The position numbers and the translations under genes were made by a program. Below the pieces are notes generated by a model. That model was given only the letters and a program-made list of their open reading frames with translations. It was not told where the DNA came from and made no database searches. From a virus (Duplodnaviria; Caudoviricetes), in the IMG/VR virus record IMGVR_UViG_3300028591_000130, positions 32,001-96,000 of that record: a stretch of DNA of 64,000 nucleotides; one strand, 5' to 3'. Each line of letters begins with the position of its first letter. Positions within the stretch are counted from its first letter, which is position 1. This document shows positions 1 through 64,000 of the stretch, in pieces.

Positions 1-2
1 TT

Positions 3-3000
3 GTAGCAGCCAAAAACGACAGTGCGTTCTTTGACATAGATACCGTTTGTAACGTTAGTCTTTATGACGCTGACACAAACACTTTGATATCAGACAATTT
101 TGTTACTAAGAAAAAGTATAGAAATAAAACAACAGAAGACATTTATCTTGATATCAACGTTTCTCAGTTTAGCGAAATTATATCTTCGTCATTACCTATT
201 AAGAAAACAGTGCAAGCAGGGAAAACTGTAAGTTACGTTACTCTTAAACCTGAGCAAGAAGTAGAGTCCGTAACTATTAACGGTATCGTTAACAGCGAAC
301 TTGGCAAGTACAGTCTTGATACTTTGCTTGATATCAACGTAACCTACAACGTTTACGTTAGTAAAGGGATCAACGGTTTTGTCGTAAGAAATCCTACTAC
401 AGGTGAAGAATGGCTTACAAGGATTGATCGTAAATCTTTCTCTGACACAGCTACTACTTTTGTTTACAACGCCTTACCTGTTGGAATTACTGGCGTTTTC
501 GTAACAGATATCGCTAACAATACAAGTATGATATCAAACTACTCTGACAAAAACTTTGACTGCACATTCTTACAAACTACAGACGATCAGATCTTCATAG
601 CACATAACGAGCTTGATATCTACAAGAATATAACGGGGATATCAGAAGATATCGAGATTATAGACAGTACGTTTTACCCTGCACTTCCTGCTAACGTATC
701 AATGGTTTATAACGTTATCATAAATCAAGGCATTGACGATGCCTTTGCGGTAACTGCCGTTTTTAAGAAAACAAGATATGATCATAATCACTACTTTTGT
801 GTTACTGCTGCTGCAAGATCGGTACTGCAAGATATCTTGTGGCTGCTTGATAACGACGGCGCATCAACAACTGTCAACGAGAAACTGTCAACGTTAGAAG
901 CCTTATCAGGTATTGTTTTGGCTAACAACACAACCTTGTTTAACAGAGTAACAGAACTGCTAACTGAAGGTTCATGGTGCCTGTGGAAACACGAAATCTG
1001 TTTCATAACCGACTTTGACTTTAAAAACAAGGAAACCATAGCTTACGATGTTAGTATGATATCACCATTGTTTAAACTGTCTAACGCAATTGAACTGCCT
1101 AAAAAAGTCGTCATTGACACAAGAGAAGAAGATATCTCTTGTTTTATGATCAAGCCGCCTTCTTACCTTGCAGTTCACTATAGTAATGAATATGACGGTG
1201 AAACAACAGATACAGGTTATGTGTCAGATGACGGTTTCACCAAACTTCATTACTCTAACATTAAAAGTATCGTGTCGATTACGATTAACGGACTTCCGAC
1301 AAACAGTTACGATATTCTGCTTGACGAAGGTGTCATTATCTGGAACTTAAACGATATGACGTCATTACAAGATACTCCAATTCAGTATCAGGTTACTTAT
1401 CTTTACAAAATTCCCGAAAGCTTACTGTATACCGATCTATCTGCCTTGTATGATATCATACCAAAAAGTTTAAGTGCGTATAACGCTGTATCGTTGAAAA
1501 GTACTATACCGACCAAGCTTGAAGACGGTGACTCTTTCGTTGTAACATTCTTTGACACCGTAGATTACGTGCCGGCACCTGTTTGCAGCAACCCTAACTT
1601 TATAGCTGTTTACGATAACGGTGTTGTAACAGTTCATAAGGTATACGACGATAACGTTATTCTCGTTAACGCAGGTTACTATTACGATGATGAGCAAGAA
1701 TATTACCTGTACAATCACGTATATAGTGATATTATAGATCGTTACAGTAACGTTACTCTGCATAACGTTAAAAGACTTGGTTCTTTGTTACAAACTATGA
1801 TATCAAGCAATAACAGGATCAGAAGATCTGACTTCAAAGGAAGAAACAATGAAGATGAACTCTGTTTAGTTAAGTTCACAGATCCTGTTATAGGATCAAA
1901 AGGTGTTTCCTTACTTAACGAGATTACAGCTGCACAAAGCTATAGCACCTGGCAAGGATATAAAATGGATATCAACTTCGTCACAGGTATCAAGGATATA
2001 GGACTGTTATTTACCGCAGAAGATTCTAATAGTTACGCCATTACTGATATTACACATTACGTTAATAACTCTATTGTGATATCAGCTTTTACCGCACGAG
2101 ATATTACCCTAGAGATTTACCGTGAGATCAAGATGTCTGACGATATCGCAAGAAAGACGGTTTTTGCAGAACCTTACGGTACTTTTGTTGTTGACGGCAA
2201 CTTTCAAGGATATCGTTTTGATGATACTGTAGACCTGTCTTATCGTTACTATCTTGTAGTCAAAGGAACAGGCATAGTAGATGATATCATAGCAAGACCG
2301 GAAATACGGCTTGACGATCAATTGCAGGTACATATTAAGAATATTGAACACTTGGGGTTTGATATTGTCGAGAAAGAAGAAAAAGGTATGACTCTTTCTT
2401 TGGCCTTTGATCCTGTAGGTTGTACTCTTGCAGATCTTGAGATTACAAACGATGGTACTGTCAGAATAGGATCTAACGTTGACTATGGCGTAACCAAGGT
2501 TTTCAGCAGTCATAACTGTTACGAGAATATCATAGCTGACGTTGTCGTAAGCAGATATAAGGAAACCTTTGTAACAGCAGAAAATAAAGGATGGATTCGG
2601 ACGCCGTTCTTTTACCTTGATAACAGTGCTAACGCTATAGATATTTACGTTAAGGTTAATAGTTTGATATCAGGACATTTAAAGAATTTTGATATCAAAC
2701 TGTACACTGCCGATAACGAACAAGGTACTGACGCCATACTTATCGGTTACGTACAAAAAACTAATCTTGCTTGTTTTGACGGTACAACTGTAAAGTCTTA
2801 CGTTAGTGCTGAGGTTAGTATGGATCCAAACAAGGTTGTAGACGTCATAGAAATGTTTGTTCGTTATGGTGAACTCGGTATTGTTCCCTTGGTAATACAA
2901 GATAACAGTAATGGTTCTGTAACAACTAAAGTTTATGATACAGTTATTACAGCAAACTATCGTTTGTTACGCCTTACAGGATCTTGTTCTGATATCACCA

Positions 3001-3203
3001 AGATTAAGTTTTTTGTCAGAGGATGTAAAAAAGACAACCTGTATCTTGTATGGACACCTTGGTATGATATCACCTTAAATAACCAACTTGTTGCAACGTC
3101 GTCACACATTTTCGATGACTACAGATTGTTTCAGTTTAAGATAAAACTTTTATCTGCTGACGTAGAGATAAAGATCAGTAACTTTGTACTGGAGGTAGTA
3201 TAG
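3..3203 (+). CDS. Large putative virion structural protein (5'-partial)
   Basis: The frame of ORF 84..3203 is open back to position 3, so the true start lies upstream of the window; beta-rich composition; heads the structural cluster. Confidence 0.6.
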   Translation, partial: VAAKNDSAFFDIDTVCNVSLYDADTNTLISDNFVTKKKYRNKTTEDIYLDINVSQFSEIISSSLPIKKTVQAGKTVSYVTLKPEQEVESVTINGIVNSELGKYSLDTLLDINVTYNVYVSKGINGFVVRNPTTGEEWLTRIDRKSFSDTATTFVYNALPVGITGVFVTDIANNTSMISNYSDKNFDCTFLQTTDDQIFIAHNELDIYKNITGISEDIEIIDSTFYPALPANVSMVYNVIINQGIDDAFAVTAVFKKTRYDHNHYFCVTAAARSVLQDILWLLDNDGASTTVNEKLSTLEALSGIVLANNTTLFNRVTELLTEGSWCLWKHEICFITDFDFKNKETIAYDVSMISPLFKLSNAIELPKKVVIDTREEDISCFMIKPPSYLAVHYSNEYDGETTDTGYVSDDGFTKLHYSNIKSIVSITINGLPTNSYDILLDEGVIIWNLNDMTSLQDTPIQYQVTYLYKIPESLLYTDLSALYDIIPKSLSAYNAVSLKSTIPTKLEDGDSFVVTFFDTVDYVPAPVCSNPNFIAVYDNGVVTVHKVYDDNVILVNAGYYYDDEQEYYLYNHVYSDIIDRYSNVTLHNVKRLGSLLQTMISSNNRIRRSDFKGRNNEDELCLVKFTDPVIGSKGVSLLNEITAAQSYSTWQGYKMDINFVTGIKDIGLLFTAEDSNSYAITDITHYVNNSIVISAFTARDITLEIYREIKMSDDIARKTVFAEPYGTFVVDGNFQGYRFDDTVDLSYRYYLVVKGTGIVDDIIARPEIRLDDQLQVHIKNIEHLGFDIVEKEEKGMTLSLAFDPVGCTLADLEITNDGTVRIGSNVDYGVTKVFSSHNCYENIIADVVVSRYKETFVTAENKGWIRTPFFYLDNSANAIDIYVKVNSLISGHLKNFDIKLYTADNEQGTDAILIGYVQKTNLACFDGTTVKSYVSAEVSMDPNKVVDVIEMFVRYGELGIVPLVIQDNSNGSVTTKVYDTVITANYRLLRLTGSCSDITKIKFFVRGCKKDNLYLVWTPWYDITLNNQLVATSSHIFDDYRLFQFKIKLLSADVEIKISNFVLEVV

Positions 3204-3204
3204 C

Positions 3205-5379
3205 GTGCAAGCCTTTTTTGACACAGCAAGAGTGCAAGCTACAGAACAAGGTTTGCACTTTTACGAACAAGATATTTTGGTATCGTCTTACCTGTTTAAT
3301 GGTGACGTCACTGTTAAAATGACAATATTATATCTGAGATCAGGTTTCGGTATCGTTATAACCGATAATGTACCGGATCAAGCTAAATACTCGTGTTTAT
3401 TCCACGTCGGCACTAACTCCTTTCAAGCTATGGAACGATATTTATCACAGCAAGAAAACTATGCTGCCGTTTCTAACACGTTAAAACCTGAAGGCGATAT
3501 TAATCTTGTCTTTAAACTTACGGGACAGAAGGGGCAGCTGTTTCTCGTTAACGGTAATAGCCTTATAAACTTAGGCACCCATATTATGTCACGAGAACTG
3601 TCAACCTATTACCTTGGTTTTTACTCTGCAGCGGGCAATACTGTCAAGGACGTTGCCTTTCTGCAAGGTGTCCCTGACTTTTGGCATTGTTCCATAGCTA
3701 ACATACACGGTGGCAGGATATCATTCTGGCCTGAAAGCTTTATGTTTGAAAACTGTACTAACGACGCTTACCTTGAACAAAAAGGTATCGAACTCCCCGC
3801 AGGTACGTTTTGGTTTAACTATGATACTGATACCATTAATGACACTTACGATATCGAAGGTTTTATCTACAAGGAAGAGATTCCGACGATAACAGTTAAT
3901 CCTGACGATTCTTTCTATGACAGTACAACAATCCACTACGACGAGGATAACTTTGAAGATATCAATAAAAGCTTTGTTCATAATCAAGGAAGTTTTACCC
4001 TTAAAGAATCTGCTACTGTTATTGTCAGCTTTAAGGGACGTAACGGCAAGGTAAGCAATGTTACCATTAAGGATACCAAGGGCGGATCTTTTGTTGTTAC
4101 TCAGGATAAACCTAAAGTTGTAGAAAGCAGCTATATTGAAATAGATTTAAGTAACGTCAAAACAGTGGTATGGGAAGGCGTTATCCACAGTGTACCGTCT
4201 TTTGATGACGCTGCTAAGATTAGCCCTTATGGTATTATAGTTACAAACCAAAACAGAATAACTCTTGACGCCTTCTTGATTAACTTTGATCAACAGTATA
4301 ACTTTACTATCGGTATGGACACTCTAACCTTGTCTGTAGATGATCCGGTTACAGGCAAGCCTTGTGGGTTAAAAAGTTTTCTGTTAACAACAGAAGATCA
4401 TAACTCTGTTAAGATTTTTTATAACGTTAGTGCTGATATCGCTAACCTGACGTTAATTATGGCTGACGGAACAAGTATCAACGCTAACATACAAGGCAGT
4501 TATACTGCTGTTGTTCCTTCCTATGTTAAGGGGCCTATCATAGTAACTAACATAAACGACGAAGCTTTTGACCTGTCAGGAAGTTACAGAGAAGTTGTTG
4601 AACCTGATAATATATTCATTGACTTGTTTACAAAGAGTTCGCTTGAACTAAAACTGTCTTATCATACTACGTCATTGTCTCGTAACCTTGAAATATTCGG
4701 TATACCAAAGGGTGCTCTTGTTGACAGAAGTCAAACTGATATCACTAAGTTTGCCAGTGTCTACAATAAATTGGACGATATCACAGTATCGGTTAAAAAT
4801 GACGTTATCACAATTCCTGACGCTGTCAGAAATGACTATGACTTCATAGCTGTCAGATATCAAAGAGCTGATAAATTTTACTATTTCTTTACTGTACAAG
4901 AGAGAGAACTGTTTAACGGTACAGAAACTGTTTTACGCTTAACTTCTGATATCAATGAGTCAGGACAAGGTATAACGGTTTACGGTGTAGAAACGGGAAC
5001 TTTTAACCCTGACTACTTTTTAAGAATAGCTGATATCAGCGCAGTGTCTTCTATTGATCTGTGTGTAGATCAAGGTGCTTACGCTGTTTTGTCTTCTGCA
5101 CTGTACGATATTAACGCAGGCGATCGTACCATAACGTTAGACAGTACTCTTGAAAATATGTATGAGTATTACATTGTTGATTACGCAAAAAAAGACTCTT
5201 ACGCTATTAACAAAGACGAAGAAAGCGGTAACTACGTTATCGATATCGTAACAGACGATACCTCAGTTAAGGTTAACTACGAGCTTAATGACACAGGCAT
5301 ATCTGATCCGGTTATCCATACTGATATCAAACCTGACGGCAATAAGTTTGTTATCCTAAAAAGAGGTGCTGCACTATGA
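3205..5379 (+). CDS. Putative virion structural protein
   Basis: 724-aa ORF, GTG start after GGAGG, coupled to neighbours; beta-rich. Confidence 0.55.
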   Translation: MQAFFDTARVQATEQGLHFYEQDILVSSYLFNGDVTVKMTILYLRSGFGIVITDNVPDQAKYSCLFHVGTNSFQAMERYLSQQENYAAVSNTLKPEGDINLVFKLTGQKGQLFLVNGNSLINLGTHIMSRELSTYYLGFYSAAGNTVKDVAFLQGVPDFWHCSIANIHGGRISFWPESFMFENCTNDAYLEQKGIELPAGTFWFNYDTDTINDTYDIEGFIYKEEIPTITVNPDDSFYDSTTIHYDEDNFEDINKSFVHNQGSFTLKESATVIVSFKGRNGKVSNVTIKDTKGGSFVVTQDKPKVVESSYIEIDLSNVKTVVWEGVIHSVPSFDDAAKISPYGIIVTNQNRITLDAFLINFDQQYNFTIGMDTLTLSVDDPVTGKPCGLKSFLLTTEDHNSVKIFYNVSADIANLTLIMADGTSINANIQGSYTAVVPSYVKGPIIVTNINDEAFDLSGSYREVVEPDNIFIDLFTKSSLELKLSYHTTSLSRNLEIFGIPKGALVDRSQTDITKFASVYNKLDDITVSVKNDVITIPDAVRNDYDFIAVRYQRADKFYYFFTVQERELFNGTETVLRLTSDINESGQGITVYGVETGTFNPDYFLRIADISAVSSIDLCVDQGAYAVLSSALYDINAGDRTITLDSTLENMYEYYIVDYAKKDSYAINKDEESGNYVIDIVTDDTSVKVNYELNDTGISDPVIHTDIKPDGNKFVILKRGAAL

Positions 5380-7181
5380 AGATCAATCTTTCAAAACATA
5401 TTGTGATATCAAGAACACCGCAAGAGTTACAAGGTGACAGCGGCCTACGCTATACAAGCTTGAAAGAAATACCCCTTGGTTACGTTAACTTTGATAACGT
5501 TGAAATGCAGCCCCATATCGATGTCAAAGAAGAATTTTTACAAGATAAGAGAGAAAAGGTTACTCCTTACAGTGTTTTTAGTAAGGCTAACGTATTTCTT
5601 TTTGACAGTAATAATAATGTTGTACAAAAGAATATGAAAAGACAAGGTGACAGTTATTACTATGAACCTACTAGCTTTGTAGAGTTTAGTCCGCTTTCTT
5701 TTAACGTTTATCTTGAAATCCAACGAACAGAACAATATTACAACAACAGAATTTATGATATCAAGGTAGGTGCAGCAAGCAGTGGCGCCAGTCTTACCTT
5801 TTCTAATAAACTTATGAGACTTTTTGGTGACAGTTACCTGCAAGGATCGTGTCCTTTTAACCTTCGCTTTAACGGAGGTAGTACTAATTACATGACACTT
5901 ATTGATAGTGCAAATAGTGACTGCGACTTTCTGTTTATCAAAAGTGCTGACGGTGTCCATTATGGTACCAGTGACGAAGAGATCGATATCGCTGATATCT
6001 TTGATAATCATACTAATGTTTGGCTGTTCTGCGATGACTATAAAGGACGTTTTAAAAACGTTACATCTTTTGACACTTCTGATATCACACTAAATATGAT
6101 AACAACTACACTGTACACAACAGAAAGTTACAGAATTACAAGAAACCAAGCTTCTGTTTTTAACCAAGATATCACCTTCTTTGATGATACCTTTTTTGAT
6201 GATCACATTTATCTTAACGAAGCTACTCTTGTTTTACACAAGAGAAACAAAGGTTTTGTGATCGTTACACCGTCATGGTTTCTTGACAATATCGATGACG
6301 TTGCACAATCAGTGTATGAAACACTTATTTACTGTTATCTTCAAAGATATGAGAAAAGCAGAACGATACCATTATGGATAACTGACGTACCTGTTAATTA
6401 CTTGGCATACAGTACAGCAAGCTTTAACAGAACCCATCCTAAGATATCATTGTCTGACTTTTTGCCCCAAGAAGATTTGTCTCTCAGTAATCTGTCCATA
6501 GTTGATATCATAGTTGACACACCTTACGTAAGATATCAAAATATTGACAGAAATAACTATGAAATTTCTTTTGTTAAGGTAAGTAACAATACAGTGCCTG
6601 ATCCGGCCCAAGACGTTAACGATATCTCTTTTTACACCAGCAAGCATACTGTAGTTTTTTATAAGCCTGAGGACATTTTTACGGTAGAGACACCCTTAAG
6701 CTATAATTTTACCAAGAGCGATAACGTGTTTTATCTTATGGTTAAACCTATGATATCAAGTTCTTATGATATTTGTACGGTGACAGATCAAATATTTAAG
6801 ATAGAAGACCTTACTATATCTTACTCTCTTTTTGTAGGACAAAGAACTTCTTCTCTCTGTAATACTTTTTATCTTTTGTCCGAAAAAGAAACGCCTTTGT
6901 CTTCTTACGTTAAAGTTGCTGATATCTACTTTACTGTACAACAAGATATCACTATTTACGATACACGCATAAACGGTGGAGGATTACCTGACGATCAACC
7001 TGATGATTATAATATGTCCGATATCGGCAATATCCTTGGGAGACCTTACCGTCTCGGATCAAGCTTGGTTATAAGGTTACCTGTCTTACTAAAACAGTAT
7101 GAAGAAAGAATACGCAAAGAACTTGATAAGCACGTAGCGGCAGGTGACACTTACGTTATAGTTTTTGAAAGCAAAAAGTAA
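5376..7181 (+). CDS. Putative virion (baseplate/tail) protein
   Basis: 601 aa, ATGA overlap; C-terminal DTRINGGGLP...DIG..GRPY...VIRLP segment resembles motifs I associate with large-phage structural proteins. Confidence 0.55.
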   Translation: MKINLSKHIVISRTPQELQGDSGLRYTSLKEIPLGYVNFDNVEMQPHIDVKEEFLQDKREKVTPYSVFSKANVFLFDSNNNVVQKNMKRQGDSYYYEPTSFVEFSPLSFNVYLEIQRTEQYYNNRIYDIKVGAASSGASLTFSNKLMRLFGDSYLQGSCPFNLRFNGGSTNYMTLIDSANSDCDFLFIKSADGVHYGTSDEEIDIADIFDNHTNVWLFCDDYKGRFKNVTSFDTSDITLNMITTTLYTTESYRITRNQASVFNQDITFFDDTFFDDHIYLNEATLVLHKRNKGFVIVTPSWFLDNIDDVAQSVYETLIYCYLQRYEKSRTIPLWITDVPVNYLAYSTASFNRTHPKISLSDFLPQEDLSLSNLSIVDIIVDTPYVRYQNIDRNNYEISFVKVSNNTVPDPAQDVNDISFYTSKHTVVFYKPEDIFTVETPLSYNFTKSDNVFYLMVKPMISSSYDICTVTDQIFKIEDLTISYSLFVGQRTSSLCNTFYLLSEKETPLSSYVKVADIYFTVQQDITIYDTRINGGGLPDDQPDDYNMSDIGNILGRPYRLGSSLVIRLPVLLKQYEERIRKELDKHVAAGDTYVIVFESKK

Positions 7182-7197
7182 GAAAGGAGGACGTGCT

Positions 7198-9591
7198 TTG
7201 GGTATACAACAACTTAACAACCTTGACTTTGCACCCGGTATTAAAGCTGCACCCATTAACGCTAACTTTAACCTTATAAATACTTGGCTTGCAAGAGAAA
7301 GATTAAGAACAGGCGGATGGGGTATCGTAGAAGGCTTTGCCTTGTCTTTTGATCAAGATACCTTGTCGGTAACAGTTAACGAAGGTGTCTTTATCAATAA
7401 AGACGGTGAAGAAGTTATCGTTGATAAGAAAGTTTTTGCTACAGGTGATATCAGCTACGACACTATTGAAAGAACTTATACAGTGGATACTGATGGCAGA
7501 GTTGTGCTGGACGATAACGTCTATGACTTTGAGAACAAGAAATATCTTGTTTATAATCCGCCTGATATCACAGTAGAAATTGACGACAGCATTCTGAGAG
7601 TGCGTGACGTTGACGGATATCCAATTTCTGTAGTAAGGCTTTTGGGAAACATTTTATGGCTTAACAGCAGCTTTGCAGGATCAAGAGTTACGGTAACCCA
7701 AACTGTAGCTTATAACAGGGTAGATACGATTATGCTAAACCTTGACGGCAGTTATGAGTATCTTTGGTCTATTGATTCACCCAGTCCAAGTCACGTAGAT
7801 CTTGCTGACTACGACACAAGTCTTTGTGTAGCTGTTCTGTTTTGGCAGATAACCGAAGAAGGTATAACCTGTGACTTCTTCACAAATCACAGGTCATATC
7901 GTACGGTCTACGTTAATAATCATAACGAACTTTACATTAACGGTGAGAGATATCAGAAACAAAAGTTCATTTACTTCGTTGAACCTCCTTTAAGAGACAG
8001 ACAAGAGAATGATCTATGGTATAACAGCAAGGATAACACCTTGTACATTTGGCGCCAAGTTGACGGTGAGTGGGGATGGACTATAGTTAATGATCACTCA
8101 GAGATCGTTATCCAAGAAAGAAAACTTTGGACACCTGATATCAACCCTGACGACTTACAAACATTTCTGTTTGATCCCGAAGAACTTAACCTGAAATACG
8201 TGCCGGGTACTAACTCGTTAACCATATTTGTCGATAACGCCGTACTAATGCACGATCAATACGACGAAATTGTTATGACTCAAGCTGATGTCAACGATCT
8301 TGTTGCACAACAAAAAGAGCTGAAAGATAAGATTACCAAAGCCAAAATAGTCTTACAAACCTTAAAAAGGAACAGAGACAGTTTGGAGCCCGGCATTAAA
8401 GCACTTAAGAAAGACCTTAGTGACTCAACCAAGCTTTATCCTGACGCTTACGATCTTGCTAACGAAGATTACACGATAAAGGATACTGACCTTGACAATC
8501 TCAGAAACCTTATGGTTATCGACAAAAGACTGGCACATTTGATATCAGACTTTATCGACCTTTTATCACAGATAGAGAATTCAGAGAAGTTGATATCGGT
8601 TTATGAACAGGAACTGACAACGATATCAGAAGTACTTGAAGCTACAAGAGTAAACAAAGGTGCCGGTTTTAAACTTAAGAAACCGTTATTGCACCCTGCT
8701 TTTGTTGCGATAACTGTAACTCACGCGGTAAGAATGAAGCCTGCGAGAGAAACATTTCAACGCGGTGCAGTCTTTGTTAAAGAAGTTAATATTGCAGCAG
8801 CAGTCACAGGATCCAACCAAGTCTTTGAGACTGCAGCAGGCTATACCGTAGGACAAGAGCAACTTGAAGTTTACGTTGACGGTATTAAATTGCCTCGCAG
8901 TATTAACGGTTTTTGCGAGATAGTCGATACTGTTAATCCTACAGTTGACTACTCTTACGTTGATGACTCTCTTGTGACCAGATATCAAGATACGATATCG
9001 CATCATTTTAAGGTTGTTAAAAATATTACTGTAGGACAGACTATTACTTGCCGTATATCAAGACAAGTTTGGAATTACGATCAGCTTGATACGTTAGTCT
9101 CTAACATAAAGGCTTACGCTAACAGTGCAATGTCTGTAGCCAACAGCGCTCTTGAACAGGTAGAAACTCTTAACACTAACTTTATTTCTAACTGGAATGA
9201 TATCAAGGATTTAACCGATACTATCCAAGAGAACATAGCTGATCTTGATAACTGTTACAAACAAGGAACAACTATAGCGCTGTCTGATATTCCTGCACAA
9301 GTGAGAACAGGTGTAATATCAAATTCCTTTGATATCATTGTTCCGATAACTTCTACTGTCCTTACTGTAAATAACGTTAATATCAACGATGTATTTTCTG
9401 TCTATTACGTTACAGCAGATAACGTCAGATTGCTTATTCAAAATGGAAGTAACAGAGATATCCAGGATATTGATTATGACATACAAAGACTAACTGATAC
9501 TCAAGTCAAGATTATCTTAAGAGATGACTTAGTTATTCCTAACACAAAGCTTTACGTTAGGGGATTCAAGAGAGGTGTAAGCAGTGGATAA
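7198..9591 (+). CDS. Putative tail/baseplate protein with coiled coil and V-x-V-[DN]-G-type modules
   Basis: TTG start 7 nt after AAGGAGG; ENDLWYNSKDNTLYIW motif; LTIFVDN and LEVYVDGIKL modules; central heptad region. Confidence 0.6.
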   Translation: MGIQQLNNLDFAPGIKAAPINANFNLINTWLARERLRTGGWGIVEGFALSFDQDTLSVTVNEGVFINKDGEEVIVDKKVFATGDISYDTIERTYTVDTDGRVVLDDNVYDFENKKYLVYNPPDITVEIDDSILRVRDVDGYPISVVRLLGNILWLNSSFAGSRVTVTQTVAYNRVDTIMLNLDGSYEYLWSIDSPSPSHVDLADYDTSLCVAVLFWQITEEGITCDFFTNHRSYRTVYVNNHNELYINGERYQKQKFIYFVEPPLRDRQENDLWYNSKDNTLYIWRQVDGEWGWTIVNDHSEIVIQERKLWTPDINPDDLQTFLFDPEELNLKYVPGTNSLTIFVDNAVLMHDQYDEIVMTQADVNDLVAQQKELKDKITKAKIVLQTLKRNRDSLEPGIKALKKDLSDSTKLYPDAYDLANEDYTIKDTDLDNLRNLMVIDKRLAHLISDFIDLLSQIENSEKLISVYEQELTTISEVLEATRVNKGAGFKLKKPLLHPAFVAITVTHAVRMKPARETFQRGAVFVKEVNIAAAVTGSNQVFETAAGYTVGQEQLEVYVDGIKLPRSINGFCEIVDTVNPTVDYSYVDDSLVTRYQDTISHHFKVVKNITVGQTITCRISRQVWNYDQLDTLVSNIKAYANSAMSVANSALEQVETLNTNFISNWNDIKDLTDTIQENIADLDNCYKQGTTIALSDIPAQVRTGVISNSFDIIVPITSTVLTVNNVNINDVFSVYYVTADNVRLLIQNGSNRDIQDIDYDIQRLTDTQVKIILRDDLVIPNTKLYVRGFKRGVSSG

Positions 9592-52538: not shown

Positions 52539-52544
52539 TCAAAG

Positions 52545-53438: not shown

Positions 53439-53460
53439 CAAGTTTAACAAAATTGTGTCC

Positions 53461-53487: not shown

Positions 53488-53488
53488 A

Positions 53489-53517: not shown

Positions 53518-53543
53518 AAAGGCTAACAAAGGAGGACGTTGCG

Positions 53544-55223: not shown

Positions 55224-55504
55224 CAGAAGGTAGCAATAAGGTAAGAGAAAGACACCTTAAGAAAGGCGAACATTACGAACTTTGGTTTGCAGATAATACT
55301 TTAATACCGTTTAAAGTTAGTATGGTGAAAAACGGGATACAGCGGTATGAAAGACAAGGTAATCTTGCAGCCATTTGTAACCTTGCAGCAAAAGGTATGA
55401 ACAAGGCTTTCTTTATGCATACCGTTCAACAGTTTTTGTACGAAGGTATCGAACTTGCAGAAAACCTGTGGGATAAGAAGATTTACCTTATTGACCATAC
55501 TTAA
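55211..55504 (+). CDS. Hypothetical protein
   Basis: 97 aa, GGAGG RBS, overlaps the recJ stop. Confidence 0.55.
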   Translation: MRDLTEGSNKVRERHLKKGEHYELWFADNTLIPFKVSMVKNGIQRYERQGNLAAICNLAAKGMNKAFFMHTVQQFLYEGIELAENLWDKKIYLIDHT

Positions 55505-55520
55505 AAAGGGAGTGAGAGTT

Positions 55521-55886
55521 ATGACCGATATTGTTCTCGTAAGTAACAGAAACAAAGAAAAGACACTTGGTGATATCGACAGGTATTGCTTTACTTACGA
55601 ACTTGGCAGTGAAGGCCTTATTTTAACAGTTAAGGAAAAAGGCCTTATTTTGACAGCTAAGGAAAAGCTGTCGTGTACTATTACCGCTATAGGTAATGAC
55701 GACAAAACAATCGTTTTTAATGACGACCAAGAGACTATGATAGGCACTCTAGAATATCCGGGTGATATCAGGATCTTACATATGGGGACAGGAGTAGCGC
55801 TGTCTAACAATATATTAGAGTACAGGCTCCCGTTGACTAACAATATTTACACTATCGTAGAAGGGCCTCCAAATGAACAAGCCTAA
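55521..55886 (+). CDS. Hypothetical protein
   Basis: ATG after AAGGGAG. Confidence 0.55.
   Translation: MTDIVLVSNRNKEKTLGDIDRYCFTYELGSEGLILTVKEKGLILTAKEKLSCTITAIGNDDKTIVFNDDQETMIGTLEYPGDIRILHMGTGVALSNNILEYRLPLTNNIYTIVEGPPNEQA
55612..55665 (+). repeat. 27-bp in-frame tandem duplication
   Basis: aaggccttattttaacagttaaggaaa / aaggccttattttgacagctaaggaaa (GLILTVKEK GLILTAKEK). Confidence 0.85.
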
Positions 55887-56070
55887 CAGATGGTCAAGAC
55901 TGCAGAGAGTTCACGCTGTCTGTGATATCTGCAAGTACAAAAATAACTGTAGCGTTTGGTGCTTTGGTGATCTCTTTGAACAAAGTACAGGACAGATTGT
56001 TAAACAAAGTTTGATATCAAAAGTTATAGCTTGGATTAAGGGGGATACTAACGTTAAAGATAAAAACTGA
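55873..56070 (+). CDS. Small Cys-containing hypothetical protein
   Basis: CDICKYKNNCSVWC. Confidence 0.45.
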   Translation: MNKPNRWSRLQRVHAVCDICKYKNNCSVWCFGDLFEQSTGQIVKQSLISKVIAWIKGDTNVKDKN

Positions 56071-56183
56071 AGATAAAATAGAAACTGTAACTAATGGGTG
56101 GAAGACAGTAGAAATTACAGAAGAAGTAAAGACAGTGAAGCACTATGTAAGGCTATAACGACTGTTTGGAGGTAGACTAAAGA

Positions 56184-56831
56184 ATGGCAGGAAAACTGAT
56201 AGTGTTAGAAGGCATTGATAGGTCAGGTAAAGAGACACAAGCAAAGATTTTGTATGACAGACTTATAAAAGAAGGCTTTTGGACCAAACTGGTAAGCTTC
56301 CCTAACTATGGTTCAGAGTCTTCTCTTCTTTTACGGAAGTATCTTAATGGTGACTTTGGACAGAAACCTGAGACAGTTAGTCCTTACGCCGTAGCTATGT
56401 TTTACGCGCTTGACAGGTTTTTAAGTTTAGACAGTTGGTATTCCTTCTATCAACAAGGTGGTGTTGTTGTCTGTGATCGTTACGTCAGTTCTAACGTAGC
56501 ATATCAAGCTTCCAAGATTGTAAAGAAGACAGAGAGAAACAGTTTTCTTGATTGGGTGACGTCACTTGAGTACACAAAGCTTGGTGCACCGCAGGCGTCG
56601 CTAACCTTGTTTCTTGACGTGTCACCTTCGCTGTCTTTAAAAATGGGACAAAGAGACAGTTCTGATATTCACGAGGAGAACATTCATTATCTTGAAAAGG
56701 TCTACAACGTTTATAAAAGAATGGCAGGCAAGCGTTCTTGGGCTACTATTTACTGTACTTACGGTACCAGCATAAGACCTATTGCTGATATTAGCAATGA
56801 TATCTGGCACTTGGTAGAACCGATCTTGTAA
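56184..56831 (+). CDS. tmk: Thymidylate kinase
   Basis: LIVLEGIDRSGKETQ P-loop; SFPNY; DRY..SN.AYQ; DIHE. Confidence 0.9.
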   Translation: MAGKLIVLEGIDRSGKETQAKILYDRLIKEGFWTKLVSFPNYGSESSLLLRKYLNGDFGQKPETVSPYAVAMFYALDRFLSLDSWYSFYQQGGVVVCDRYVSSNVAYQASKIVKKTERNSFLDWVTSLEYTKLGAPQASLTLFLDVSPSLSLKMGQRDSSDIHEENIHYLEKVYNVYKRMAGKRSWATIYCTYGTSIRPIADISNDIWHLVEPIL

Positions 56832-56851
56832 AAGGATGGTGACGCGTTTTT

Positions 56852-59800
56852 ATGACAGGTTACGTTGGATTGCACCAGCATAGTACATACAGTCTTCTTG
56901 ACGGTTTTTGTAAGATACCCGATCTTGTCAGAAAGAGTAAAGAACTTGGATGGACTGCTACAGCAATAACGGATCATAATCACCTTGGAGGCATTCCTGA
57001 CTTTCAACAAGAATGTTTCAAGCAAGGAATAAAACCGATCTTAGGAATGGAAGGATATTTTACGGTGAGCACAAAAATCTTGTCTGCGCCCATCGAAGAA
57101 AGACACAAGATTGCAGAACGTGACGCTATTCTGTCAGGTAAGTGGACTGAGGCTGATATCAAAAGTTTAGACAAGCAAGATCGTAAACAACTTTGGCAAG
57201 ATTATGGTTATGACACGTCAGGTTTTCATATCTTGTTCTTGGCTAAGAATCAACAAGGGTGGAACAACCTTGTTAAGATCCAAAGCGAAAGCAGCAAAGC
57301 TTGTACCTTTAACGGCAGATATCACTGTGATATGAATATCTTGAGAAAGTATCATGACGGGGTTATCTGTACTACAGCATGTGTAGCTAACTTTGCTGCT
57401 GCAATGATTAACAACAGAAAGACGTCTCTTGCTGCTTGGTACCTTAGTCAAATGCAAAAGATCTTTAGTGACGACTTTTACCTTGAAATTCAACCGTTAA
57501 ATATTAAGAAGCAACAGACAGTCAATCTGTTCTATCATACCTGGGCACAAGATCATAGCGTTAAGGTTATTGCTACTAATGACTCTCACTGGATAAATCA
57601 AAGTGACGCTGCTGATCATGACGTACTCTTGTGCATAGGTACGGGCGCCAAGCAAGCTGATATGGCACGTATGCATTACTCGCCTGTGTTTTGGATTAGA
57701 AGCGAAGAAGAAATGATATCGGCCTTTGAAGAACAAGCCGATAGTATGGTAGAAAAGTTTTCTAAGTTTAAAGAACAAGATAGAGAAGATTATCTTAGCT
57801 TTTGTAAGCAAGCGTTAACTGCTACCCAAGAAATAGCTGATAAAGTAGATCCTGATATTAAACTTGGATCAGAGTATCACCTGTTTCCTGCTGTTAAGGT
57901 AGAAGAAGGTAAGACTGCAGAATTTGTCTTGTATGAGAAAGCTGCTACCGGACTCTTTGAATATCTTTACGACAATCCCGATCTTGACAGAGAAGTCTAC
58001 AAGACAAGACTTGTAGAAGAACTTGATATTATATGTTCTAAAGGTTTTGCGCCTTACTTCCTTGCCTTTGAGGAACTGGCTACATGGTGTGATATCAACG
58101 ACATACCTACAGGTCCCGGCAGAGGATCTGCAGCAGGAAGTTTGACACTCTTGTGTTTAGGTGTAACCAAGAAGATCGATCCTATCAAAATGAAACTTTG
58201 GTTCTCTCGTTTTATGACAAAAGACAGAACAGCTATTCCTGATATCGATTATGACGTATCTTGGGCACAACGTGACAAAGTTATCAAACACCTCAAGGAA
58301 ACTTACGGTACAAAGTTTGTCGCACACATAGGCACTTTCACTACTCTTAAGGTTAAGAGTGCTATTAAGGACGTAGCCCGTGTCCTTGGTCTTGAGTTTA
58401 CGGAAAGCCTTAAAATATCCAAGGCTATTGACGCTCTTTCAGAAGATCCTAATCTTTCTTTTAAAACGATAGACAGTTGGGCTGACGGATCTTTAGATGA
58501 CAGAGAAAGGTATAAACGTTTTCAAGAACTTGAAAGCAGTTATGAAGATATCTTTGAACTTGCAAGAAAATTTGAAGGTATACCAAGACAAATGGGTGTA
58601 CACGCAAGCGGTATTCTGGTAATGCCGAAACCTGTCAGTGATCTCTTCCCTGTCAGATATCTTGACGGTGTAGCTGTTACTCTTTGGACAGGCACACAGG
58701 TAGACGAGATGAAAGCTTGTAAGCTTGACCTGTTAGGATTAAAAACTCTTGACCTGTTAGACACAACCGTTAAAAACGTAGGACTCTCAATAAGAGACAT
58801 TTACGAAACAGTTGATATCAACGATAAAGAGTTATACAAAGCTATCAGAGAAAAGAAAACTAACGCTGTCTTCCAGCTTGAAAGTAATCTTATGAAACAG
58901 ATTATCGACACTATCCAACCTACCTGTTTTGACGACGTGATCGCAATTAACGCACTTGCAAGACCGGGACCTTTGTCTTGTAATATGCACGTTGACTATG
59001 CTGCCGTTAAGAACGGAGAGAAAGAGATACAATATCCGATCAGGGGTTGTGACGATATTCTTGATATCACTTATGGTGCTATAGTGTATCAGGAACAGGT
59101 AATGGCCATTTCTAAAAGAATAGCAGGTTTTGACGACAACCAAGCAGACAATATCTCGAGGAAGATTATCGGCAAAAAAATAGCCAAGCTTTGGCCTATG
59201 CTGGTTCGTTGTCATACCTATGGTAAGAAAAATTGCGAAGGACCTGACGGATGGGAAGATAACGACAATCTGCCTTGGTATGACCCCAAGGGCAAGTACG
59301 GTGATGAGATAGAAGGTGCTATTAACAGAGGTTACAGTGCTGACGAAGTAATATCATTCTTTAACAGTATTGAGAACTACGCAAGCTACGCTTTTAACCG
59401 TAGTCACGCTGCCTGTTATAGCCTGCTGGGAATCTATACTATGTACGTTAAGCTGCACTACCCTGTTTACTTTTGGGCGTCAGTTTTGTCGATAGCAGAA
59501 GATGCCAAGAAAGAAAAGTACTTTGTTACGATCAAGGAACAGGATATTCAGTTTGCTGTTCCTGATATCAACAAGTCTAACAAGGATTTTACAGCTGACT
59601 CTAAAGGAAAGAAAATTTTCTTTGGTCTTAATAGCGTTAAAGGGATCGGGGAAAGTACAGTAGCTGATATCTTATCTGACAGAGAGAAGAACGGATTTTA
59701 CAAGGGTGTAGAAGATATCAACAGTCGTCTTCCAAAAAAGACGTTGCGCCTTAACGTATTTCTTACCCTTGTTCTTGCAGGTGCCTTTGCCTTTGAAGAT

Positions 59801-60229
59801 GAAAATCGTTTTATTCTTTACAACAAGGTCCTTGATATCAGAAAAGATAAGAAGACAAAAAGAAAGAACGTCGATAAGTGGAACGAAGACGAGTGTAAGA
59901 AACTTGAGAAAGATCTGTTGGGTGCAAGGATAACTTACAGTAGCTGGTGGGACAGTATTAAAAATGGATCTTCCTTTAAAGATATCAAAGTTAACAGTGT
60001 AACAGCGATATCAGAACGTACAGACAAAAAAGGGCGTTTAATGTTATTCTGTAACTTAACCATAGATGCCTGTAAGATAAAAGCGATTATGTTTGCAAGT
60101 GACTACGCTAACCATAACGGACAAGCACTCAAAGACAAAAAAGGACCGTTTGTGATAGCAGGAAAAAGACAAGATGACACAATCCTGATCAAAAACGTTA
60201 AGATCGATATTGAAGAAATCTTAGAGTAA
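56852..60229 (+). CDS. dnaE: DNA polymerase III alpha subunit (family C)
   Basis: PHP HQHSTYSLLDG/TDH; GRGSAAGS; PDIDYD; HASG; KLDLLGLKTL; FQLES; RPGP; YAFNRSHA. Confidence 0.95.
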   Translation: MTGYVGLHQHSTYSLLDGFCKIPDLVRKSKELGWTATAITDHNHLGGIPDFQQECFKQGIKPILGMEGYFTVSTKILSAPIEERHKIAERDAILSGKWTEADIKSLDKQDRKQLWQDYGYDTSGFHILFLAKNQQGWNNLVKIQSESSKACTFNGRYHCDMNILRKYHDGVICTTACVANFAAAMINNRKTSLAAWYLSQMQKIFSDDFYLEIQPLNIKKQQTVNLFYHTWAQDHSVKVIATNDSHWINQSDAADHDVLLCIGTGAKQADMARMHYSPVFWIRSEEEMISAFEEQADSMVEKFSKFKEQDREDYLSFCKQALTATQEIADKVDPDIKLGSEYHLFPAVKVEEGKTAEFVLYEKAATGLFEYLYDNPDLDREVYKTRLVEELDIICSKGFAPYFLAFEELATWCDINDIPTGPGRGSAAGSLTLLCLGVTKKIDPIKMKLWFSRFMTKDRTAIPDIDYDVSWAQRDKVIKHLKETYGTKFVAHIGTFTTLKVKSAIKDVARVLGLEFTESLKISKAIDALSEDPNLSFKTIDSWADGSLDDRERYKRFQELESSYEDIFELARKFEGIPRQMGVHASGILVMPKPVSDLFPVRYLDGVAVTLWTGTQVDEMKACKLDLLGLKTLDLLDTTVKNVGLSIRDIYETVDINDKELYKAIREKKTNAVFQLESNLMKQIIDTIQPTCFDDVIAINALARPGPLSCNMHVDYAAVKNGEKEIQYPIRGCDDILDITYGAIVYQEQVMAISKRIAGFDDNQADNISRKIIGKKIAKLWPMLVRCHTYGKKNCEGPDGWEDNDNLPWYDPKGKYGDEIEGAINRGYSADEVISFFNSIENYASYAFNRSHAACYSLLGIYTMYVKLHYPVYFWASVLSIAEDAKKEKYFVTIKEQDIQFAVPDINKSNKDFTADSKGKKIFFGLNSVKGIGESTVADILSDREKNGFYKGVEDINSRLPKKTLRLNVFLTLVLAGAFAFEDENRFILYNKVLDIRKDKKTKRKNVDKWNEDECKKLEKDLLGARITYSSWWDSIKNGSSFKDIKVNSVTAISERTDKKGRLMLFCNLTIDACKIKAIMFASDYANHNGQALKDKKGPFVIAGKRQDDTILIKNVKIDIEEILE

Positions 60230-60406
60230 AAGGATAAAAATAAGACCTGTACCTTAGGTAATGAAAGTTATAAGAAATACCGGCAGAAAATCTTCGTACT
60301 TGTCTGGCGGTAAATTACAAAGGTACAGGCTTTTCTCTTTTTCTGTTAAAGATACATTGTCGATCAGAGGAGGCTTCTTGAGAATAATGTCAAGGAGCGA
60401 GACACA

Positions 60407-60796
60407 ATGTTATCAGAACATTTTAGCGAGAGCGAATTCTGGTGTCGTGGTCAAGATCAAGGCACCTGTAACTGCGGACATAGCCTTAAGGTTGATCCAC
60501 GTCTGATCGAATTGTTAGAAGAACTTAGATCTAACATTGGCGGCGTACCGCTTATAATAAACAGTGCGTACAGATGCCCTATGCATAACCAAAGCGTGGG
60601 CGGAGTACCTAACTCACAACATACTAAAGGTACCGCCGCTGACGTAGCTTGTCCAAGCGGGTTAACTATGCCAGAGTTCTTGTGGTACGTAGAACAAATG
60701 GATTGGGACGGAATCGGATACTACCCCTATTCTCAGTTTATCCATTGTGACTGTCGTGAGGGTGGGATTGGTGCACACATCTACTGGGAAGGATAA
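60407..60796 (+). CDS. Peptidase M15A (Zn D-Ala-D-Ala peptidase-like; probable endolysin)
   Basis: HFSESEF.C; SAYRC..HN..VGG..NSQH..G.AAD; FIH.D.R. Confidence 0.88.
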   Translation: MLSEHFSESEFWCRGQDQGTCNCGHSLKVDPRLIELLEELRSNIGGVPLIINSAYRCPMHNQSVGGVPNSQHTKGTAADVACPSGLTMPEFLWYVEQMDWDGIGYYPYSQFIHCDCREGGIGAHIYWEG

Positions 60797-60799
60797 GAG

Positions 60800-61216
60800 A
60801 TGAACCAAAATGAGAGAGATTCTTATTACCTTGAGATTGCCAAGACAGTTAGCAAAAGATCTACCTGTTACTACGGTAATTTGGGATGTGTTATCGTTGA
60901 CAAGGACGATAACGTGATATCAACGGGATATCTTACTGACAAAAGTGGTATTATCAACTGCAGAAAAAGCGGTTATTGCTCTTTTGCTGAAAGAGAAGGC
61001 ATTACCGATAATTATGGAACGCCTGAACAGTGTGACTATATGTTCCCTGAGGTTAGTGCTATACTGGCGGCTGACAGGTCAAGATTACAAGATTCAAGCT
61101 TATATCTTTACTGCGAAGATCTTACAGGACATATTATAGAGCCCAAGATAGAGAAAACTATAGTTAGAATTCTTCGTAGTGCAGGAGTAAAAAGGATTGT
61201 GTTACCTAAGCAATGA
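60800..61216 (+). CDS. dCMP deaminase-like protein lacking Zn ligands
   Basis: YYLEIAKTVSKRSTC...GCVIV...ISTGY...AGVKRIV framework; HAE replaced by FPE and PCxxC absent. Confidence 0.75.
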   Translation: MNQNERDSYYLEIAKTVSKRSTCYYGNLGCVIVDKDDNVISTGYLTDKSGIINCRKSGYCSFAEREGITDNYGTPEQCDYMFPEVSAILAADRSRLQDSSLYLYCEDLTGHIIEPKIEKTIVRILRSAGVKRIVLPKQ

Positions 61217-61230
61217 AAGGAGATTACTCA

Positions 61231-61503
61231 ATGCAAAAGATCAAGAGTACTGTAGGTGCAGTCTTTGGGTTGACACCTGTTGAAACAGAGGTTTTAATTC
61301 AAAGTATGATCGTAAAACTTCAGCCTGCCTTGTTAATATTAGCAAGACTATTATTTATCGTAGGTTTTGTCTGCTGTCTTATAACGTATCCTTTGCCTGC
61401 TGTCTTTATTGGTGTGCTTGGTTACTATCTTGTCGAGCTTGAAACAAGAATTGACTTGTTAGAGAGAAAAGCCAAAGAACAGGAAAAGTATTATCCAAGA
61501 TAA
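61231..61503 (+). CDS. Small membrane protein
   Basis: Long hydrophobic stretch followed by charged coiled C-terminus; AAGGAG RBS. Confidence 0.6.
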   Translation: MQKIKSTVGAVFGLTPVETEVLIQSMIVKLQPALLILARLLFIVGFVCCLITYPLPAVFIGVLGYYLVELETRIDLLERKAKEQEKYYPR

Positions 61504-61550
61504 TATCATAAGAAGGGATAACCAAAGAAGTTTTATCTGAAGTAAGGTCA

Positions 61551-61958
61551 ATGACGGCATATTGTAGAAAGAAGATACTTGTCATACTAAGGAAGATTTT
61601 GGCATTGGTTAAGATCAAGTTTACGAAGTCGTCACTATCTGTACAAGAGAAGATATCTGATATCATAAAGGAAAGTAAGCATATACTTGTAGAAAAAGGT
61701 TACGTTACCGAGGAACAAAACATTATTTTTACAGACAATATGATATCAATACCTATCTTTGATATCAGTAAAATTCCTTTCTTACTAAGGTATTCTTTTA
61801 AGACAAAGAACAAAGTTATTATACTTTGTCATGACACATTATTGGAGGCTTCTTTAGACTTATACTGCTGGACATGTCTGTTACCGGGATTGAAACACAG
61901 TACTTATCAGCAGTATGAAAAGGAGGCTATGGTGTTATGGAAATGGTTAACAAAGTAG
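61551..61958 (+). CDS. Hypothetical protein
   Basis: 135-aa ORF in the co-oriented cluster. Confidence 0.5.
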   Translation: MTAYCRKKILVILRKILALVKIKFTKSSLSVQEKISDIIKESKHILVEKGYVTEEQNIIFTDNMISIPIFDISKIPFLLRYSFKTKNKVIILCHDTLLEASLDLYCWTCLLPGLKHSTYQQYEKEAMVLWKWLTK

Positions 61959-62314
61959 GACGCATTACTGACGTCTGTTTTGGCCTCGTAAGAAAGTATG
62001 TATCAGAGATCATTATTTTAATGTTTATCGGATTGTTCTTCTTATGGTCTATAGGTTATCTGGCTAACGCGATTTACGGCTATCATTTCGACTTGTCAAG
62101 TTGCTGGGGCGGCTTTTCTGCCATAGGCGGAGCAGGTGTCTTGGCAGCTATCAAATATTGCACAGACAGCTGGAAAAACAGCCCTGAAGGTGAAATGCCT
62201 GCAGATAGTGATATCTTGAAACTGTTTGATAAAAACTGTGACGGCAAAGTTACATTTTCTGAAATAAGATCTTCACTTATGGATAAAACTAAGGATATGA
62301 TAAGCAAGGTTTAA
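61937..62314 (+). CDS. Putative holin with C-terminal EF-hand-like loop
   Basis: Two TM segments; directly upstream of the lysozyme; DKNCDGKVTFSE loop. Confidence 0.6.
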   Translation: MEMVNKVGRITDVCFGLVRKYVSEIIILMFIGLFFLWSIGYLANAIYGYHFDLSSCWGGFSAIGGAGVLAAIKYCTDSWKNSPEGEMPADSDILKLFDKNCDGKVTFSEIRSSLMDKTKDMISKV

Positions 62315-62345
62315 AAGGAAAGAAGAAGAGGAGGAAGAGAATACC

Positions 62346-62939
62346 GTGAGAGTTTTTGATATCTCTTTTTGGCAATCTGATAACATAATAGATTACCTTG
62401 TAAAGCTTAACGCTAATGGTATTATCTTACGCTTAGGTTTAACCTATAACGGTGTCCCTGAGCTTGACGAAAAATTTACGCTTTTCTTAGATAAAGCAAG
62501 ACAGGAAGACTTACCTGTAGGTATTTACTATTACTCTAAGATGAATACTTACGAACTGGCTAAAGTTGAAGCACAGTTCATTAATGACAAAGTTTACGAG
62601 TTCTGGGGCGGTTACGATGAACCTGCACTGGGTGTATGGTGGGATATGGAAGACGAGACTACTAAAGTGTCTGATATCCATGAGATAACTATGTACGCAG
62701 TTGATACCTTGCTTAACTGGGAATTCAAGAAAGTAGGTATTTACGCAAGCTACTCTTACTTCCATGACTATCTTGATATCAAGGATATTGCTACAAGACA
62801 GATACCTGTGTGGGTAGCACAGTACAGTCGTCATAATGATCTTAAACGTGAAAACCCCGAACTTAACCATTACGGGTGGCAGTTTACGGAAACATATGAC
62901 GGTAATACTCTTGACGGCAACGAATGGTATAAACTTTAA
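62346..62939 (+). CDS. GH25 lysozyme (endolysin), catalytic domain only
   Basis: DISFWQ; VGIYYYS; WDMED (DxE); GIYAS; WVAQY; WQFT. Confidence 0.9.
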   Translation: MRVFDISFWQSDNIIDYLVKLNANGIILRLGLTYNGVPELDEKFTLFLDKARQEDLPVGIYYYSKMNTYELAKVEAQFINDKVYEFWGGYDEPALGVWWDMEDETTKVSDIHEITMYAVDTLLNWEFKKVGIYASYSYFHDYLDIKDIATRQIPVWVAQYSRHNDLKRENPELNHYGWQFTETYDGNTLDGNEWYKL

Positions 62940-63317: not shown

Positions 63318-63452
63318 AGATGCGCTTAGAATGCTTGTCTTTTGTTACTCTACGCAATCGTTAGGTAGCAGACGTTAGAAAGGGCAAACTAACAGGATCC
63401 AAGCCATGCTTGTAAGACTTTACATATTTCCTAAGGGAGGATTTTTACGGCC

Positions 63453-63770
63453 GTGATAAATCCTGCTAATAACACAACTATTTGGTATTGTATAATTAAG
63501 AAGGATAAAATTAATACTGTAAGGCAAAAAGGTTTTCAGTGTTTCTCTGATCCGATATCTGACTGGGTACCATATCGCACACCATGGATAACCGTCACAA
63601 CAGAGCCAGACAGTGACGGCATAGTTTGTGAGGTTGATCTTGCGGATATCTCTGAACATGATACTCAGTGGGTCTTTTCACCAAACAGTAATCAAAAGAG
63701 ACTGCGTGTCTTTAAAGACATAGCTGCCAACAAGATAAAAATTTTAAAAGAGACAGATCTTCGTGCCTGA
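63453..63770 (+). CDS. Hypothetical protein (weak ART/Tpt1-like pattern)
   Basis: GGAGG RBS; WYCII...TVRQKGF...VCEVDL...IAANKIKI. Confidence 0.45.
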   Translation: MINPANNTTIWYCIIKKDKINTVRQKGFQCFSDPISDWVPYRTPWITVTTEPDSDGIVCEVDLADISEHDTQWVFSPNSNQKRLRVFKDIAANKIKILKETDLRA

Positions 63771-63786
63771 TCTGTCTCTTTTTTTT
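63746..63786 (+). terminator. Intrinsic terminator
   Basis: AAAAGAGACAGATC-9 nt-GATCTGTCTCTTTT followed by TTTT. Confidence 0.8.
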
Positions 63787-64000
63787 GAGAAGGATTAACG
63801 TTAACTTTGTAGCAGTATCTGTAGCAATAGGATAGCAAAAATTACCTGATGATACAAGAAGAGAAATTTACTGTTAAGGACGTTATGCTTCTTAAAAAAG
63901 AGATCATAAGTGTCGATAGCGCCTTTTAACCATATCTTCTCTCTGACGTCAGGATCTGTGGTAGAATTAACGATACTGTCATTTTGCGCAATCCGATATA

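Follow-up and report, generated by a model that had tools for sequence, protein, structure and literature searches.

A HIP1-like iterated GATATC palindrome in a clade of uncultivated jumbo phages

IMG/VR virus record IMGVR_UViG_3300028591_000130 (Duplodnaviria; Caudoviricetes) is a linear viral contig of 104,760 bp, and we analyzed its bases 32001-96000, a stretch of 64,000 nucleotides referred to below as the window, for the accumulation of the palindromic hexamer GATATC. The coding fraction of the contig is 96%, and the + strand carries 58 of the 67 called genes, among them the structural genes and a replication module containing dnaE (Table 1). CheckV estimated the completeness of the contig at ~45%, the remaining ~55% of the phage genome lying outside the data. 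The DnaE relatives found in a large protein collection lie on contigs of 220-345 kb, and on this ground we assign the phage to a jumbo phage family. No nucleotide match to the contig was found among GenBank phages, the best DnaE match being 34% identical (a Moorella phage), and a scan of GTDB genomes with DnaE returned bacterial DnaE alone, at 29-33% identity and mostly from Clostridia, with no binned phage contig. Judged from sequence, namely the mostly clostridial origin of the nearest bacterial DnaE proteins, the lysins, and a TTGACA/TGnTATAAT promoter, the host probably belongs to Bacillota.

Table 1. Features of the window and the contig (window positions unless marked otherwise)
Feature	Position	Strand	Remarks
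GATATC field	1..64000	.	243 sites, 101 of them TGATATCA
Stretch of highest density (conserved structural genes, four)	1..9591	+	5.1-7.8 sites/kb; genome 29981-41591
Fibre gene	10096..12063	+	1 site, 0.5/kb; without homologue in relatives
GATATC in 38-bp spacer	17359..17364	.	13 nt past stop, 26 nt before next start
Second low-density accessory fibre gene	17385..20201	+	2 sites, 0.7/kb
GATATC in 80-bp intergenic spacer	33494..33499	.	26 nt upstream of next start
Replication module	47545..62759	+	AEP primase, DnaB, DUF1064, sigma-region-4 protein, RecJ, thymidylate kinase, DnaE, M15 peptidase, dCMP deaminase (Pfam); aligned to strain L251 (98.6-99.1% identical)
Thymidylate kinase (Tmk)	56184-56831		
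dnaE (DNA polymerase III alpha)	56852..60229	+	15 sites; marker for finding and ordering relatives
dCMP deaminase	60800-61216		downstream of thymidylate kinase
133-aa protein	genome 95801-96202		
419-aa protein	genome 96192-97451		
HtpG/Hsp90, full-length gene	L001 1796-3766 (genome, outside window)		Pfam E=5e-117
Group II intron reverse transcriptase	G000 98900-100834 (outside window)	-	Pfam; counterpart at L007 22243-23381
M23 peptidase; LAGLIDADG gene	contig	-	Pfam
Tail and fibre proteins; SLT lysin	contig		Pfam
Two giant proteins, 3779 aa and 3179 aa	contig		Pfam scan

GATATC was the commonest of all hexamers in the window and occurred 371 times in the contig, about once per 280 bases, with 141 of these copies in the extended form TGATATCA. 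The counts given in the original prediction, which had been made from the letters of the window, were reproduced exactly, both for bases 1-6000 (37 GATATC, 19 of them as TGATATCA and 25 with self-complementary flanks) and for the 15 sites of dnaE. For the contig, base composition (order 0) predicted 34 copies, and Markov models of orders 1, 2, and 3 predicted 19, 59, and 135, respectively, so that the word stood ~11x above chance by base composition. The first-order model gave merely 19 because AT dinucleotides are under-represented in the contig (ratio 0.80). For TGATATCA, the third-order model predicted 15 copies in the contig, as compared with the 141 observed.

The excess persisted when the encoded proteins were held constant. 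Genes of the contig contained 362 GATATC, compared with 76±7.7 after synonymous codons were shuffled within each gene, keeping both protein and codon usage, and with 35 expected from codon-order shuffles. As the original prediction had claimed, all three reading frames were affected, with 221, 40, and 101 sites against 51, 13, and 12 under the synonymous shuffle (4.3x, 3.1x, and 8.6x). The claimed bias of the proteins was also borne out: Asp-Ile dipeptides were about doubled (342 vs 177 expected), and 221 of the 342 were written GAT-ATC, where 48 were expected. The reverse dipeptide, Ile-Asp, was not enriched (184 vs ~177). In DnaE and RecJ orthologues, Asp-Ile reached 2.1-2.7x expectation in lineages enriched in GATATC and 1.0-1.7x in unenriched lineages. 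The proteome is thus distorted by the excess of GATATC, an effect on proteins demonstrated here.

Flank information was found solely at position ±1, with A at +1 in 59% of sites, and the flanks were strand-symmetric (A.A 44 vs T.T 31; C.A 30 vs T.G 29). Left and right flanks were statistically independent (T..A 141 vs 129 expected from the margins), which fits two half-sites read separately rather than base-pairing between arms. The same independence argues against an origin by palindrome-perfecting (template-switch) mutation, which we rejected, or through hairpins. For TGAT followed by ATCA, the half-sites predicted 4.4 copies and 141 were observed, indicating that the whole palindrome is the unit. 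One-letter deviations from TGATATCA stood at 18.6x at positions 1/8, 2.1x at 2/7, 2.7x at 3/6, and 0.7x at 4/5, the central value being partly confounded by the avoidance of CATC. The neighbor GACATC was nearly absent (2 vs 52 expected, 0.04x), because CATC is equally rare in every context. With all frames enriched, nulls that preserve proteins and codons exceeded, and flanks symmetric between strands, the data support an excess that acts on DNA and not on codons or peptides.

This architecture closely resembles that of the highly iterated palindromes of cyanobacteria, HIP1 (GCGATCGC) and its alternates (Elhai 2015, PMC4390886; Xu, Lawrence and Durand 2018, PMC5861425), a likeness that the original prediction had proposed and that now extends to details. 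One-letter deviations from HIP1 are commonest at the outer letters 1/8 and rarest at the center 4/5 (Elhai 2015, PMC4390886), the same pattern as in the phage. In both systems a short palindrome is hyper-abundant, inside genes in every frame as well as between them; soft outer letters surround a hard core and are replaced lineage by lineage. The systems differ in that the carrier is a phage instead of a cellular chromosome, in the word itself, which in the phage is rich in AT and has a core of 6 letters within a soft form of 8, and in the fold excess (11-19x in the phage, 15-300x for HIP1). No cognate methylase was found in the available part of the phage genome. HIP1 sites are reported to be clearly conserved in position, whereas positions in the phage are weakly conserved; for HIP1 a long-range periodicity of 10-90 kb is reported as well (Xu et al. 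2018, PMC5861425). We therefore describe GATATC as a HIP1-like iterated palindrome on double-stranded DNA, with a hard core and one soft flank position per side, T..A in this phage. It was the closest phage counterpart of HIP1 found in the literature searched.

We then placed the trait on the phylogeny of the phage (W in the lineage comparisons). IMG/VR relatives were obtained by an alignment query, a single-protein scan of IMG/VR having given none. The excess was present, with T..A flanks, in L251/L252 (DnaE 99% identical to that of the window), L004-6 (86%), and L333 (66%). It was also present in L007 (62%; 51 GATATC vs 4.1 at order 1; A..T flanks), L334 (54%; 26 vs 2.0; R..Y flanks), and L336 (51%; 23 vs 5.6), but not in L008 (52%), L335 (51%), or L337 (49%). 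Together with the window phage, the enriched lineages exceeded the first-order Markov expectation by 4-19x, and the core GATATC stayed constant across them while the flank varied. In the DnaE tree, W, L007, and L334 were split from L008 and L335 by a branch with 100/99 support, L336 was nested among the enriched lineages, and L337 fell outside their subclade. Because the enriched lineages group together, one origin suffices. The trait is thus confined to one clade of uncultivated jumbo phages, arose once, and is missing from sister lineages.

Three distant IMG/VR relatives (G001-G003) contained 171-267 GATATC, 3- to 6-fold over base composition, and were rejected as carriers of the same trait since di- and trinucleotide composition explained most of the excess and the flanks were C..G; in G002, for example, 211 copies were observed against 180 from the second-order model, with a CpG ratio of 2.24. 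This related jumbo phage (IMGVR_UViG_3300045988_172386, loci L209-L216) is peculiar in its own right, with CA/TG at 0.46 beside that CpG ratio, CGCGCG at 296 copies vs 31 expected, and CTATAG only once in 144 kb. Among the matches listed in a motif-pair scan of IMG/VR, most were due to chance, and the best (G006-G008) were enriched 2-3x, save for one local cluster. The cluster, eight GATATC within 150 bp at 800-947 of an unrelated 42-kb viral contig (G008, L068), resembles an iteron or operator array.

Along the 105 kb of the contig, short-range spacing followed a Poisson process, with mean distances between sites of ~263 bp for the window and ~282 bp for the contig (coefficient of variation of the gaps, 1.0; Kolmogorov-Smirnov test against the exponential, p=0.84; variance/mean, 1.14 per kb). 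Exponential spacing rules out regular or helical phasing. Density differed among genes. At 4.10 sites/kb, core genes exceeded accessory genes (2.84; p=0.0035); the reverse transcriptase of the intron carried 1.6 and the LAGLIDADG gene none, so that density rises with the residence time of a gene. The structural genes of the densest stretch have homologues in all five IMG/VR relatives (5/5). The fibre gene that follows them looks recently acquired, its sequence not yet loaded with the word, and the longest stretch of the contig without any site (2160 bp) overlaps the second low-density fibre gene.

According to the original prediction, the word also occurs between genes, and the two sites that it cited (17359 and 33494) do lie outside open reading frames. 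Intergenic DNA of the contig was nevertheless not clearly enriched, spacers of at least 50 bp holding 2 GATATC in 2.6 kb where composition predicts 0.9. When six enriched sequences were pooled, intergenic DNA held 17 GATATC in 6.3 kb, against 19.8 at coding density and ~2 from composition. The pooled density matches that of coding DNA, so the word is not confined to genes, and the contig alone is thin evidence on this point; the notion that the word is missing from intergenic regions, hinted at by the contig alone, was accordingly dropped after pooling. A single promoter-adjacent site was seen, at genome position 1727, where GATATC adjoins the TTGACA box of the promoter of the Hsp90/HtpG gene, a gene with no homologue in the five IMG/VR relatives.

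Individual sites turned over readily. Relative to L004 (76% nucleotide identity), 47% of window sites were shared, compared with 25% of other hexamers, and relative to L007 (63%) the shares were 16% and 11%. Where Asp-Ile was conserved in both genomes, the presence of a site was barely predictive of its presence in the other (p=0.075 for L004 and 1.0 for L007). Against the 99% identical strain L251, the 15.2-kb alignment contained 177 mismatches, with 46 sites shared, 4 found in the window only, and 2 in the strain only. Polarized by L004 and L007, these six events amounted to ~4 gains and 2 losses, where neutrality predicts ~0.4 gains and ~3.5 losses. Taken together, the turnover and density data indicate a directional force that acts everywhere and holds a density rather than a fixed set of sites.

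We tentatively favor, at somewhat less than an even chance, selection for dense sites that are recognized by a sequence-specific DNA protein with two-fold symmetry, probably a dimer. The trait originated once, within a sub-clade of uncultivated jumbo phages that encode DnaE and probably infect Bacillota, and a genome-wide directional force has since kept about one site per 280 bp while individual sites came and went. The reader would take each half-site (TGAT) on its own. New sites would be favored wherever the protein tolerates them, with the consequence that Asp-Ile would come to be written GAT-ATC and neighboring dipeptides would drift to Asp-Ile. The analogy with HIP1 suggests, as candidates for the reader, an orphan methylase of the EcoRV type and a protein that coats or binds the genome; its gene would belong to the host or to the part of the phage genome beyond the contig. 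Both the existence of a protein that reads the word and the maintenance of the word by selection instead of biased repair are what we infer from the pattern. A more elaborate version, possible but doubtful, is that the clade owns a HIP system of its own, in which a symmetric reader has shifted its outer-base preference from lineage to lineage and the chromosome, proteins included, has been rewritten to ~800 copies as a private mark of phage DNA; candidates for such a reader are an orphan methylase and a protein acting in genome coating, in partition, or against nucleases.

Several observations weigh against selection by a reader protein. Part of the synonymous-level excess is due to the avoidance of CATC, ACAT, CTAG, and like words, which raises the null from 76 to ~130. 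The purely Poisson spacing gives no hint of a phased or structural function. From the conservation data, selection and biased repair cannot be told apart, and the gain and loss counts are tiny. Among ~64 proteins scanned in 105 kb (~45% of the genome), no DNA methylase, EcoRV-like enzyme, or obvious DNA-binding candidate was found, D12-class and N6_N4 methylases included, so that the unknown system which, in the original prediction, marks the genome stands as a hypothesis. Gene-content profiling likewise found no family common to all enriched genomes and missing from unenriched ones. Finally, the screen for a host carrying the word covered a sample of two classes. Overall, the interpretation given in the original prediction was partly supported.

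The only methyltransferase domain of L007, which is enriched, is of the FkbM type and adjoins dnaE, and a true N6_N4 methylase is encoded by L337, which is unenriched. The 419-aa and 133-aa proteins were restricted to W, L004, and L007 and had no informative family or fold. Thymidylate kinase was found in the same three genomes only; none of the unenriched relatives has it, nor does any of G001-G005.

The rival that survives best, though we consider it unlikely, is a neutral drive, in which biased mismatch repair or gene conversion, linked to a sequence-specific methylase, would keep turning near-sites into GATATC and the sites themselves would have no function. A process of this kind is known from E. 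coli, where Dcm and very-short-patch repair directionally raise the methylase target CCWGG above expectation and deplete its transition neighbors. In the phage, the target word is similarly raised, but its outer-position transition neighbors were at or above expectation (GATATT 1.00x, AATATC 1.57x, GGTATC 1.13x, GATACC 1.43x), which means that no signature of very-short-patch (Vsr-like) repair is present. Losses at about the neutral rate and gains at ~10x neutral speak for a drive, as do the lack of clear positional memory among conserved Asp-Ile, the Poisson spacing, the growth of density with residence time, and an intergenic density across the clade as high as that of coding DNA. In cyanobacteria, every genome examined with a highly over-represented sequence reportedly contains at least one putative cognate methylase (Elhai 2015, PMC4390886). 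The 105 kb at hand, however, revealed neither a methylase nor a repair nuclease, and the true intergenic DNA of the contig had only its 2 sites in 2.6 kb.

A less probable source of the word is the host, whose chromosome may itself be rich in GATATC, or whose methylase, repair, or defense system may impose a word that the phage mirrors or exploits. A clade-wide trait could follow a host switch, different hosts would give lineage-specific flanks, and in most of the 401 Clostridia that were sampled TGATATCA outnumbered the reversed sequence used as control. Yet none of the 401 Clostridia or 301 Bacilli sampled came within ~15-fold of the phage density. In the Clostridia, TGATATCA reached at most ~90 per Mb, compared with 1346 per Mb in the phage, and in the Bacilli pairs within 400 bp numbered at most 8 per genome, compared with 68 in the 105 kb of the phage. 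Comparable density was thus found in none of these 702 Bacillota genomes, and an equal density in the host is excluded for this sample only. As far as could be tested, then, the enrichment did not vanish under a codon-preserving null, was not limited to a single frame, and had no equal in the 702 genomes sampled. The related phage L008, which comes from the same sequencing study, lacks the excess, and the window phage and L007, for which a shared host or niche is suggested by their intron reverse transcriptases, differ in flanks.

Between the window phage and L007, the reverse transcriptase of the intron is 99% identical, compared with 62% for DnaE. This identity indicates, from sequence comparison, a recent transfer of the intron between the two and hints that they share a host or niche. 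The Bacilli sample contained a further occurrence of the extended word: a 19-bp arrangement, TGATATCA-NNN-TGATATCA, recurs in several unrelated genomes (G423, G468, G515, G529, and G554) and resembles a conserved operator, so a protein reading such a half-site may exist in Bacillota.

It is very improbable that the excess is a mere by-product of codon usage, amino-acid content, and a restriction-driven purge of short words, with no force on GATATC itself. The purge is real. In the contig, 30 of the 64 palindromic hexamers were below half of expectation, and GCATGC, CCTAGG, and CCGCGG were absent; the very genome that accumulates GATATC shows heavy avoidance of restriction sites. Among coding-strand words, CATC (38 vs 241 expected), CCTC (29 vs 124), ACAT (263 vs 545), and CTAG (33 vs 191) were depleted, with the complement of CATC, GATG, at 246 vs 432. 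GATATA was strongly avoided too, and the avoidance of CATC, ACAT, CTAG, and GATATA pushes Asp-Ile toward GAT-ATC. Such strand-asymmetric avoidance may reflect non-palindromic restriction sites or a pressure at the RNA level, for example from an endoribonuclease that cuts ACAU or from anti-Shine-Dalgarno words. A constrained shuffle, in which proteins, codon usage, and the combined count of 156 avoided words of 4 to 6 letters were all preserved, raised the null from 76 to ~130, so that word avoidance accounts for ~1/5 of the synonymous-level excess and no more; the 362 sites observed are still 2.8x this null. The largely compositional excess of G001-G003 also speaks for a by-product. In the window phage, by contrast, GAT-ATT stood at expectation (70 vs 68) though it contains no avoided word, while GAT-ATC was at 221 vs 48. 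Frames 1 and 2 were also enriched, 3x and 9x, Asp-Ile itself was doubled, and the scarcity of AT dinucleotides lowered the first-order expectation.

An action of GAUAUC in mRNA or of Asp-Ile in proteins is extremely unlikely, for while 58 of the 67 genes on one strand mean that nearly all sites are transcribed as GAUAUC, and the long intergenic spacers of the contig are poor in sites, the flanks are strand-symmetric, the three frames encode three different peptides, intergenic DNA is enriched across the clade, and Ile-Asp remains at expectation.

Returning to selection by a symmetric reader, a word dense throughout a genome for the benefit of a DNA-handling machine has familiar examples. Chi, the uptake sequences DUS and USS, and KOPS-type words are short and genome-wide in the same manner, but they are asymmetric and orientation-biased, in contrast to the perfect palindrome with symmetric flanks seen here, and to our knowledge phages have no uptake system. 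Phages usually purge 6-bp palindromes. The hoarding of GATATC runs counter to this rule in a phage that purges about 30 others. We know of no reader proven for any hyper-abundant palindrome, a standing problem since HIP1 was described, and the phage version offers a small genome, fast generations, a dated single origin, and sister lineages without the trait. The natural variation in flank letters could, moreover, be matched to variation in a candidate protein. Should a reader exist, GATATC would mark phage genomes in a new way and could serve as a handle by which phage DNA is recognized host-free. Should repair bias operate instead, the phage would show that such bias can double a dipeptide across a proteome.

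Two further enriched palindromes were observed. The first, TAACGTTA, is a second, weaker iterated palindrome (36 copies vs 3.6 at first order and 13.4 at third order). The other, CTGCAG, ranked second in enrichment among the hexamers of the window phage, L004, L007, L251, and L333, and lower-order composition explains most of its excess. Among the relatives, L335 carries three consecutive radical-SAM genes directly upstream of recJ (1340-6107), and PTS HPr-like proteins are encoded near lysin genes in L334 (7441-7692), L336 (9863-10105), and L337 (16662-16949).

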